The notes under the pieces were generated by a model that worked only from the letters and a program-made list of their open reading frames with translations, was not told the DNA's origin and searched no databases. Positions 13,087 to 14,856 of a stretch of 64,000 nt of DNA are shown piece by piece. The DNA is from an archaeon (lineage in GTDB: Archaea > EX4484-52 > WAPT01), in contig JAPDKB010000007.1 of assembly GCA_029258795.1 (NCBI GenBank), positions 1 through 64,000 of the forward strand. The letters run 5' to 3'. Made by a program: the position numbers and the translations under genes. Positions within the stretch are counted from its first letter, which is position 1. Each line of letters opens with the position of its first letter.

Positions 13087-14856
13087 TCAGCCCAAGAAAT
13101 AAATGCCTTTCTCCTTCTGTTCCATATCCTTCTGCGATCCGGGTTTGTTTGCCCTCGGTCTGAAGGTTTCTTCATCCTTCCTGAAAGTTATACCCACCTT
13201 TTTCAGGAAGATGTTGATGCCTTCATCAAAACTCATAACTCCTGATGCCTTACCTTCCACTGATGGAATACCATCAAACACCACACACTCCTTGGCAAGA
13301 TAGGTTAGCAGGAGGAGGTCGTGGTCTATAACCATACAGCCCTTGTGAGTGTCCATCAGGAAGCGCTTAAGAAGCTTGGCAAACTTGACACGCTGCTCCA
13401 CATCAAGGAAGCTGGAGGGCTCATCAAAAAGATAAAAATCGGCATCCTTCAGCATGCATGCAGCTACGGCAACACGCTGAAGCTCTCCTCCACTCAGCTC
13501 GTTGAGCTTTCTTTCCATCAGATCATCGATTTCCAATGGCTTGAGTATTTTCTCCTTTATCGAGCTTGCCATTATGTTCTTACCACCTGAAGCGCTCATT
13601 AGAGCTTGAAGGACGGTAATGTCTCCTTCCTTCACCTGAATGTACTGGGGCTTGTACGCTATCTTTATCTCCGCTTCCACCTCGCCTTCATCCGGCTTTA
13701 TCACGCCTGCAAGCATTTTTGCAAAGGTCGTCTTACCCAGAGCATTTGCTCCGAGCACAGCTATTATGTTCTTGTTTTTGAGCGAGCTTCCCTCAACTTC
13801 CAGCTTGAAGGAAGGGAATTTCTTGACAAGTTTGGTGTAGCGTACCACCTCTTCTCCTTCCTCCTCAATTCTTGCCTGTGGTTGGAAGGATAAAGGTTCA
13901 TCCCTGAATCGCACGTTCTCCTCCTTTATGTAACCATCAAGATAGAGGTTTATCCCCCTCCTCACGCCGTAGCTGTTGGACACCACACCATATACGCCGG
14001 ATTCTCCATAGAAAATGTGAACATAGTCCGCCATGAAGTCAAGCGTTGCCAGATCGTGCTCCACCACCATCACGCTCTTGCCACTTTCAGCCAGGGACCT
14101 TATGGCTTTGGCCACATTCAAACGCTGCTCCACATCAAGGAAGCTGGAGGGCTCATCAAAAAGATAAAAATCGGCATCCTTCAGCATGCATGCAGCTACG
14201 GCAACACGCTGAAGCTCTCCCCCACTCAGCTCGTTGAGCTTTCTTTTCAGAAGGGTGCGGAGGTTCAGCATTTCAACAACTTCATCCATCGCTCCGCGTT
14301 CATCCTTGAGAAGGTTTTCAACCTTATCGTTGTAGTAGAGAGGTATCTTGTCCACTTCCTGCGGCTTCAAACTGGCTTTTATCTTTCCTTCAGCCAGCTT
14401 TTTGAGGTAGGTCTGGAGTTCATTCCCTTTAAAGCGCTCCAGAACTTCATCCCAAGCGACATCCTCCTCTCTTCCTAAATTGGGTTTCAGCAGACCAGCA
14501 AGTATCTTTATGGCGGTGGACTTGCCTGTACCGTTCAGGCCAAGCAGACCAACCACACTTTTTTCCTTCGGCACAGGCAAGCCGTAAAGTCTGAAGCCAT
14601 TCTTTCCATACTGATGAACCTTGTTTTTCGGTTCAGAAGCAAGATTCACTATCTTCACGGCTTTCTTGGGACACTTCTTAACGCATATACCACACCCTAT
14701 ACAGGTCAGCTCATCGATGTAAGCACGTTTATCATCCACCACAACCGTTTCATCTCCGGCCCTCACCCTCGGGCAAAACCTCTTGCACTCCTGATTGCAT
14801 TTTTTGGGGTTGCACTTCTTAACATCAACAACAGCTATTCTTATCCTTTCTTCCAT
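13087..14856 (-). CDS. rli1: ribosome recycling ATPase ABCE1/Rli1
   Basis: N-terminal Fe-S cysteines ([18 protein letters not shown]), two ABC domains, hinge RPRANKPGS. Confidence 0.97.
   Translation of the reverse strand: [589 protein letters not shown]
13390..13514. repeat. 125-bp direct repeat inside ABCE1, NBD2 copy
   Basis: Matches 14122-14246 at 124/125 positions (13489 T vs 14221 C). Confidence 0.93.
14122..14246. repeat. 125-bp direct repeat inside ABCE1, NBD1 copy
   Basis: Matches 13390-13514 at an offset of 732 bp. Confidence 0.93.

Follow-up and report, generated by a model that had tools for sequence, protein, structure and literature searches.

How do two anciently duplicated halves of one ATPase come to carry almost the same stretch of DNA at their catalytic motifs? 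The question is raised by the ABCE1 (RLI) gene in a stretch of 64,000 nucleotides (nt), referred to here as the window, which comprises positions 1 to 64,000 of the forward strand of contig JAPDKB010000007.1 (assembly GCA_029258795.1) from an uncultured hydrothermal-vent archaeon of the GTDB lineage EX4484-52; WAPT01. The domain duplication of ABCE1 is ancient, and a first-pass annotation of the window had claimed that the two ATPase sites of the gene are homogenised at the DNA level through apparent intragenic gene conversion. The analysis described here makes it very probable that conversion between the two halves is ongoing and has given them a mosaic, shared catalytic cassette. The gene is a single open reading frame (ORF) on the minus strand (13087..14856) that encodes 589 amino acids plus a stop codon. 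Its product is a full-length member of the family, with the eight cysteines of the iron-sulphur (Fe-S) domain and two nucleotide-binding domains (NBDs), each having a Walker A, a signature motif, a Walker B, and an H-loop. It scores 817.7 bits against the NCBIfam model NF009945 (RLI equivalog; cut-off 469) over residues 5-587, aligns over its full length with the solved ABCE1 chains 3j15_B/5lw7 (E 1.6e-188; 3bk7 and 6tmf are further solved examples of the family), and is divided by Pfam into Fer4_RLI, Fer4, and two ABC_tran stretches. Ribosome splitting and two unequal ATP sites are traits of the ABCE1 family that would be carried over to this protein by family membership. In the genome that holds the window (G000; 1,168,407 bases in 23 contigs, 96.3% complete), this gene is the sole full ABCE1, and the remaining ABC matches have E values of 4e-12 or weaker.

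In-register comparison of the two halves confirmed that nucleotides 13390-13514 and 14122-14246 are identical at 124 of 125 positions, with an offset of 732 nt and both copies inside the one ORF; a repeat search returned a 142-nt pair at 95% identity. The only mismatch (T at 13489, C at 14221) lies, as annotated earlier, in a synonymous glycine codon, GGA at codon 456 and GGG at codon 212, and both copies encode the same 41 residues (205-245 and 449-489), including the signature motif, Walker B, and D-loop. The claim that the flanks diverge at once also held: at both edges, which are sharp to the nucleotide, identity drops to the background of 0.13-0.47 observed in 30-nt windows elsewhere in the gene. 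Outside the tract, the H-loops of NBD1 and NBD2 differ from each other. Where the two halves have identical residues, the same codon is used in 39/40 cases inside the tract vs 14/53 outside. The offset is in frame, and the predicted outcome of a crossover deletion, namely the loss of 244 codons and a protein with a single NBD, was reproduced, the remaining product being calculated at 345 amino acids.

The identity might have been produced during assembly, binning, or polishing, such that diverged tracts were made identical by the assembler or the consensus. G000 resembles a metagenome-assembled genome in its contig number and completeness, and repeats are mishandled by short-read assemblies. 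This explanation was confronted with contigs built at k=31 from three public runs of two studies: X1, from study P1, which is labelled hydrothermal vent metagenome and is possibly the source sample, and X2 and X3, from study P2. In each run, one contig ends at 13419, a 125-nt piece covers 13390-13514, the sequence from 13485 to 14151 is represented separately, and a further contig restarts at 14217. The 667-nt contig 13485-14151 covers the spacer with 0 other letters in X1 and X2, and X3 has several shorter pieces there. The contigs overlap by 30 nt at the repeat edges, as expected of a k=31 graph at the edges of a true repeat, and diverged tracts would have given unbranched contigs; the artefact is thus refuted by breaks that fall exactly at 13390/13514 and 14122/14246, with a common 125-nt piece, in all three runs. 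Assembly collapse or a consensus artefact, which the first-pass annotation had named as what would overturn its reading, is thereby all but ruled out. Furthermore, self-comparison of G000 revealed six pairs of contig ends that share exactly 127 nt without a mismatch (C1:1-127 and C6:59700-59826, for instance, or C1:310059-310185 and C3:1-127). The assembly graph was therefore probably built at k=127, a final word length greater than the repeat, and each copy would have been threaded by real 127-mers. The X1 contig starting at 14217 carries 1 other letter, which, taken together with the 125-nt repeat piece, suggests 125/125 identity between the copies in that assembly. The same feature, with codons and residues of its own, is found in other assemblies, namely in the congener G001 and in the protein P0003. 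The identity of the tract is not made by assembly, and an artefact is regarded as extremely unlikely. The 127-nt end overlaps additionally indicate that several contigs of G000 could be joined.

A second alternative requires no recombination: under convergence, selection for identical protein segments combined with strong codon bias would give the same codons by chance. Preferred codons are usual in conserved motifs, and a small excess of shared codons was indeed observed in the tract segments of 154 distinct control ABCE1 genes with DNA, which were collected from the order, 80 genome-contig loci, and 80 metagenome-contig loci. In the tract, the shared-codon fraction of these controls at identical residues is 0.447 vs 0.391 expected (0.417 outside it), so that the earlier premise of saturation at synonymous positions was roughly right. 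However, the codon usage of the window gene predicts approximately 17 shared codons of 40 in the tract, against the 39 observed, and the nucleotide-sharp edges are foreign to convergence. The controls, which have the same motifs, are identical at 62-90 of 126 nt in the tract segment (median 76), and no exact internal repeat in them exceeds 38 nt (median of the longest repeat, 12 nt); these ranges exclude chance for the window tract. Moreover, G000 and G001 use different codons, each matching within itself. Convergence is accordingly given a negligible probability.

The rarity of the feature is also apparent among proteins and within the order. Of the 120 closest proteins, 118 were scorable, and only P0001 (41/42 residues identical between the halves), P0002 (42/42; the G001 protein), and P0003 (39/42) stand out, the remaining 115 having 15-29 of 42; among 149 further representatives at 50% identity, 119 of them scorable, the maximum is 28/42. 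An ABCE1 match was obtained in 41/41 genomes of the same order, G000 included. The 30 loci returned comprise 27 that were scorable by the motif rule and three that were excluded for having one signature hit each (L016, L019, and L033). The two tract copies agree at 41/42 residues and 124/126 nt in G000 and at 42/42 residues and 123/126 nt in G001, and at 12-25 of 42 residues and 65-84 of 126 nt in the other 25 loci.

The argument that conversion has continued draws on the comparison between G000 and G001. The corresponding site of the G001 ABCE1 (77% amino acid identity) is occupied by a 130-nt repeat without mismatch (offset 738), which starts 8 nt further 5′ and ends approximately 5 nt earlier than the repeat of G000, and the G001 gene uses the same codon at 39/41 identical residues inside the tract vs 25/56 outside. 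Between the two species, orthologous tracts differ at 25-28 of 123 nt, whereas NBD1 and NBD2 tracts within one gene differ at 1/123 nt in G000 and at 3/123 nt in G001 (0 within its 130-nt repeat). At residues identical between the species, 19-21 of 38 codons (0.50-0.55) differ in the tract and 216/378 (0.57) in the rest of the gene, and the tract DNA is therefore under no special constraint. Judged from these alignments, the tract drifts as fast as the remainder of the gene, with both copies drifting jointly. If conversion had halted at speciation, the copies within a genome should differ roughly as much as the orthologues do.

Changes at the strain level point in the same direction. The 125-nt piece of X2 departs from the window twice, at 13447 (C>T; synonymous, Lys) and at 13467 (C>T; Val to Ile). 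The second change is present in every X2 contig that covers the site (4 contigs, depth 132.3/132.3) and in X3 (6.07/6.07). No letter differs from the window in the flanking pieces of X2, which span 252 nt and 667 nt, and one X2 tract contig serves both contexts, so that both copies carry the strain-level change. The residue at this position is Ile in G001, in the third species of the genus (G002), and in P0003, and the Val of the window therefore probably arose as a new mutation that has since been transferred to the other domain. X2 also holds a 109-nt contig that aligns over its whole length with window positions 13390-13498 at 9 differences (depth 23.6); it may be the tract of one more close relative from this sample, with both ends cut as a repeat would be.

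These comparisons bear on a third alternative, in which one old conversion or partial duplication in the ancestor of the genus was followed by purifying selection on the nucleotides, for example through an RNA element or a codon constraint, without further conversion. In favour of such a history, the most conserved protein motifs are those encoded in the tract, and the same residue mosaic is present in both species. Nevertheless, the DNA has been free to change, as the distance between orthologous tracts and the replacement of half of their synonymous codons indicate, and all but 1-3 of the changes are common to both copies in each species. The end points of the repeat differ between G000 and G001, the strain-level changes appear in both copies, and a search for an embedded RNA gene with Rfam gave no match in 12900-15000 at E values up to 1. 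A single old event held by selection is thus considered very unlikely.

Ongoing conversion is further supported by phylogenetic trees. The first-pass annotation had proposed separate trees of the tract and its flanks, with within-gene clustering expected for the tract only, and this is the pattern obtained. In the flank protein tree (54 rows, 27 genes), NBD1 and NBD2 are split at 100% support, and G000 pairs with G001 inside each domain (99% and 100%), whereas in the tract DNA tree the copies pair within genes. In approximately unbiased (AU) tests on the tract DNA, forcing the NBD1 copies of G000 and G001 together costs 49.4 log-likelihood units (p=0.0106), and forcing all NBD1 tracts together costs 59.6 units (p=0.00026). 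The earlier description as recent concerted evolution is accordingly retained in its second half; "ongoing" is a better word than "recent", as the process is also seen in the sister species and in strains.

More distant relatives provide an indication of its age. The ABCE1 of G002 is represented by only its last 187 residues at a contig end, and its NBD2 tract has the same mosaic ending. In P0003 (69% identity), NBD1 and NBD2 are equal for 34 residues up to DEPS and then continue with canonical NBD1 and NBD2 endings. The DNA of P0003 was absent from the genome contigs searched (best match 51%), 42 genomes of the order, and metagenome contigs (best match 52%). In the sister proteins P0004 and P0005 (58-59% identity), approximately 12 residues from LFDEPS to LDV are common to both NBDs; their NBD1 has an Ala that is otherwise specific to NBD2, and their NBD2 has a Phe that is otherwise specific to NBD1. 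This stretch may be, at the protein level, an older and shorter conversion tract in a sister lineage. Conversion seems to predate the genus, with a tract that seems to have lengthened over time.

The shared sequence is itself a mosaic of domain-specific residues. In canonical ABCE1/Rli1, here represented by 151 controls without an indel in the tract, NBD1 and NBD2 differ at fixed tract positions, whereas this genus has one shared set in both. With positions numbered from the signature Ser, and with two values for each that state how frequent the G000 residue is in control NBD1 and in control NBD2, four residues are of the NBD1 type: Leu -4 (0.65, 0.19), Phe 22, which precedes the Walker B Asp and is Leu in NBD2 (0.91, 0.00), Ser 27 of the D-loop (0.99, 0.00), and Phe 28 (0.17, 0.01). 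Three are of the NBD2 type: Glu -2 (0.07, 0.77), Cys 12 in the signature helix (0.01, 0.92), and Glu 32 after the D-loop (0.00, 0.96). Position 27 is Ala in the NBD2 of 151/151 controls, and in control NBD1 the residue that follows the D-loop is usually Lys or Arg. The values at Ser 27 and Glu 32 substantiate the mosaic that the first-pass annotation had described with reference to orthologues (NBD1-like DEPSS, NBD2-like VEQR), and the mosaic extends to the DNA level. The Ser of DEPS (k26) is encoded by TCN in the NBD1 of 134/151 controls and by AGY in the NBD2 of 115/151, and both copies of G000 and of G001 have the NBD1-type TCN. The order of the markers along the tract needs at least 4 switches, which fits many conversions in both directions. 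The codon family of this Ser looks like a frozen difference between NBD1 and NBD2 and is a handy DNA marker of conversion direction.

In the favoured explanation, the two ABCE1 halves repeatedly pass a short piece of DNA to each other through gene conversion, a non-reciprocal form of homologous recombination, with the conserved signature motif and the Walker B region supplying the local identity that would start the exchange. In this genus the converted tract would have grown to 125-130 nt, a length at which each new mutation would be either lost or copied to the other domain, and conversions both ways over time would yield one shared mosaic of NBD1-specific and NBD2-specific residues. A crossover between the direct repeats, with the deletion described above, would affect a presumably essential gene and presumably be purged by selection, and the tract probably ends where domain-specific residues cannot be swapped, so that selection would set its edges. 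We infer that the exchange depends on RadA; G000 encodes a RadA (PF08423, Rad51/RadA, 306.4 bits; C4:30334-31047) and a second, weaker paralogue.

Several observations weigh against ongoing conversion or narrow its support. The evidence on the DNA consists of contigs of public runs, with no single molecule that spans each copy and no recombination intermediate or deletion junction; 7 contig joints were listed, none of which skips 732 nt, and in k=31 contigs such a joint would lie inside the repeat and be uninformative. Relative to the flanks, the 125-nt piece is 1.2-2.6 times as deep (24.1 vs 14.8-19.9 in X1, 23.2 vs 8.7-16.1 in X2, and 6.07 vs 4.0-4.6 in X3), not a clean twofold excess, and depth was not used as evidence. 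The assembly of G002 is without the NBD1 part and so contributes an NBD2 tract only, and the evidence from P0003, P0004, and P0005 is confined to the protein level. The AU test on the tract protein tree gave p=0.61 (42 columns, with identical rows left free). Finally, GC-biased conversion was considered and rejected, as the GC content at third codon positions is not consistently raised in the tract, being 0.52 vs 0.55 in the rest of the gene in G000 and 0.59 vs 0.48 in G001.

A weaker signal of the same kind extends to other archaea. In the 12-codon signature core of the 154 controls, identical residues share their codon at a rate of 0.493 vs 0.358 expected; at least 8 shared codons are found in 21 genes vs 2.3 expected, and at least 10 in 8 genes vs 0.11 expected. 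Exact matches between NBD1 and NBD2 of 26-38 nt at this core occur in L106, L010 (G014), L058, L093, L127, L054, and L044, and the first five of these have matches of 32-38 nt. Bathyarchaeia and Methanomassiliicoccus-like genomes are among the sources of these genes, as is one genome of the same order; the codons differ between lineages and agree within each gene. In 71 disjoint pairs of related control genes, core differences average 9.23 within genes vs 10.10 across genes (Wilcoxon p=8.4e-5; 38 pairs with the lower value within genes, 13 with the higher, and 20 ties). Applied to the rest of the tract, the test gave p=0.0058; Walker A (p=0.16) and the segment immediately behind the tract (p=0.37) gave no signal. 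Five such tests were run, on controls in which Bathyarchaeia are abundant, and the effect is small. On codon comparisons of this kind, the data suggest that short conversions recur at the signature motif well beyond the focal genus. The broader proposal that conversion between NBD1 and NBD2 is pervasive and old, with the signature core recopied in many archaeal lineages and the vent genus as an extreme case, is tentative and, in our judgement, somewhat less probable than its negation. If it were true, the likeness of the catalytic cores would partly reflect continuing concerted evolution and not purifying selection alone, the nearly invariant domain-specific residues of the cassette would not be what makes the ATP sites unequal, and the same might hold for other twin-domain ABC ATPases.

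For the biochemistry of ABCE1, the tract amounts to a natural cassette swap, in that both ATP sites of this genus have one sequence for the signature motif, Walker B, catalytic Glu, and D-loop, including residues kept strictly different between the domains in 151 other archaeal ABCE1 genes. According to the available part of a study on Sulfolobus solfataricus ABCE1 (PMC6124641), the two ATP sites are asymmetric, with a low-turnover control site II and a high-turnover site I, and each site is defined by its catalytic Glu together with the signature Ser that closes the opposite site. All of these site-defining Glu and Ser residues are inside the shared tract, and any asymmetry must consequently come from outside it. 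It must lie elsewhere (Walker A, Q-loop, H-loop, hinge, or NBD1 insertion) or be relaxed in this genus.

Concerted evolution of comparable persistence is known between separate genes. The available parts of two reports describe long-lasting concerted evolution of the duplicated mtrA of methanogens (PMC4632066) and of 26 prokaryotic genes (PMC6053082), and ABCE1 resembles these cases in that paralogues of core genes are closer within a genome than between species through repeated conversion. It differs from them in that their donors and acceptors are, in the text available, separate gene copies, whereas in ABCE1 they are two anciently duplicated domains of one ORF, and in that the tract is only 125-130 nt long and lies over the catalytic motifs of two functionally unequal ATP sites. 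In the available text of PMC6053082, the word ABC has 0 occurrences. In-gene repeats that recombination keeps alike at in-frame offsets are known from spider silk genes, as cited in the portion of PMC6053082 at hand, and are also found in giant proteins of G000; in those proteins, which are of structural or surface type, equivalent modules follow one another in series, whereas ABCE1 has exactly two non-equivalent domains with flanks diverged to background and domain-specific residues overwritten. Efficient gene conversion in archaea is described in the accessible parts of PMC8223754 and PMC11276520, where it equalises genome copies in polyploid Haloferax volcanii; conversion there acts between chromosome copies at the same locus, whereas in ABCE1 it would act between two places in one gene. 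A literature search returned no report of conversion within ABCE1 or between NBDs, although subscription journals were mostly uncovered and absence is unproven.

The locus thus offers a clean case of concerted evolution, replicated across species and strains, inside one universal and presumably essential gene and between anciently duplicated domains. It indicates that short conserved motifs can seed recombination despite the divergence around them. Such tracts can mislead trees of the ABCE1 halves and of other twin-NBD proteins, and direct repeats of 125-130 nt constitute both a built-in deletion hazard and a trap for assemblers.

Coordinates of the ABCE1 features in the window and of repeats in giant proteins of G000
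Feature	Position	Strand	Remark
N-terminal Fe-S domain	14632..14856	-	eight cysteines at residues 15, 20, 24, 28, 52, 55, 58, 62; Pfam Fer4_RLI, Fer4
Walker A of NBD1 (residues 106-114)	14515..14541	-	outside the tract; differs from its NBD2 counterpart; not homogenised
Tract, NBD1 copy (residues 205-245)	14122..14246	-	signature motif, Walker B, catalytic Glu 235, D-loop
Sole mismatch	14221..14221	-	Gly212 GGG at 14221 vs Gly456 GGA at 13489; synonymous
Unique spacer, 607 nt	13515..14121	-	remainder of NBD1 with H-loop, hinge, Walker A and Q-loop of NBD2
Walker A of NBD2 (residues 369-377)	13726..13752	-	outside the tract; differs from its NBD1 counterpart; not homogenised
Tract, NBD2 copy (residues 449-489)	13390..13514	-	signature motif, Walker B, catalytic Glu 479, D-loop
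Giant-protein repeat	C1:236224-236351 / 236803-236930
Giant-protein repeat	C1:258410-258499 / 259394-259483
Giant-protein repeat	C2:11512-11598 / 11761-11847
Giant-protein repeat	C1:80799-80891 / 80988-81080

Elsewhere in G000, self-comparison returned 39 repeat pairs. The pairs that were inspected belong either to giant repeat proteins or to contig ends, and no other conserved single-copy gene with such a tract turned up among them. The giant-protein repeats are near-identical, in frame, 87-128 nt long, and located inside open frames of 1400-2000 amino acids, one of which has a C-terminal hydrophobic anchor. G000 thus also homogenises, or has recently duplicated, modules in giant repeat proteins.

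The neighbours of ABCE1 in the window are ordinary archaeal housekeeping genes, encoding RNase P p30, Rpp14, a KH protein, a CxxCxxCC protein, and a small kinase. The ORF of the kinase (AAA_18/CoaE-like; 11998-12594, minus strand) overlaps the end of the CxxCxxCC-domain gene (12515-13030, minus strand) by 80 nt. Its P-loop starts approximately 15 residues in, and its true start is thus probably further downstream.

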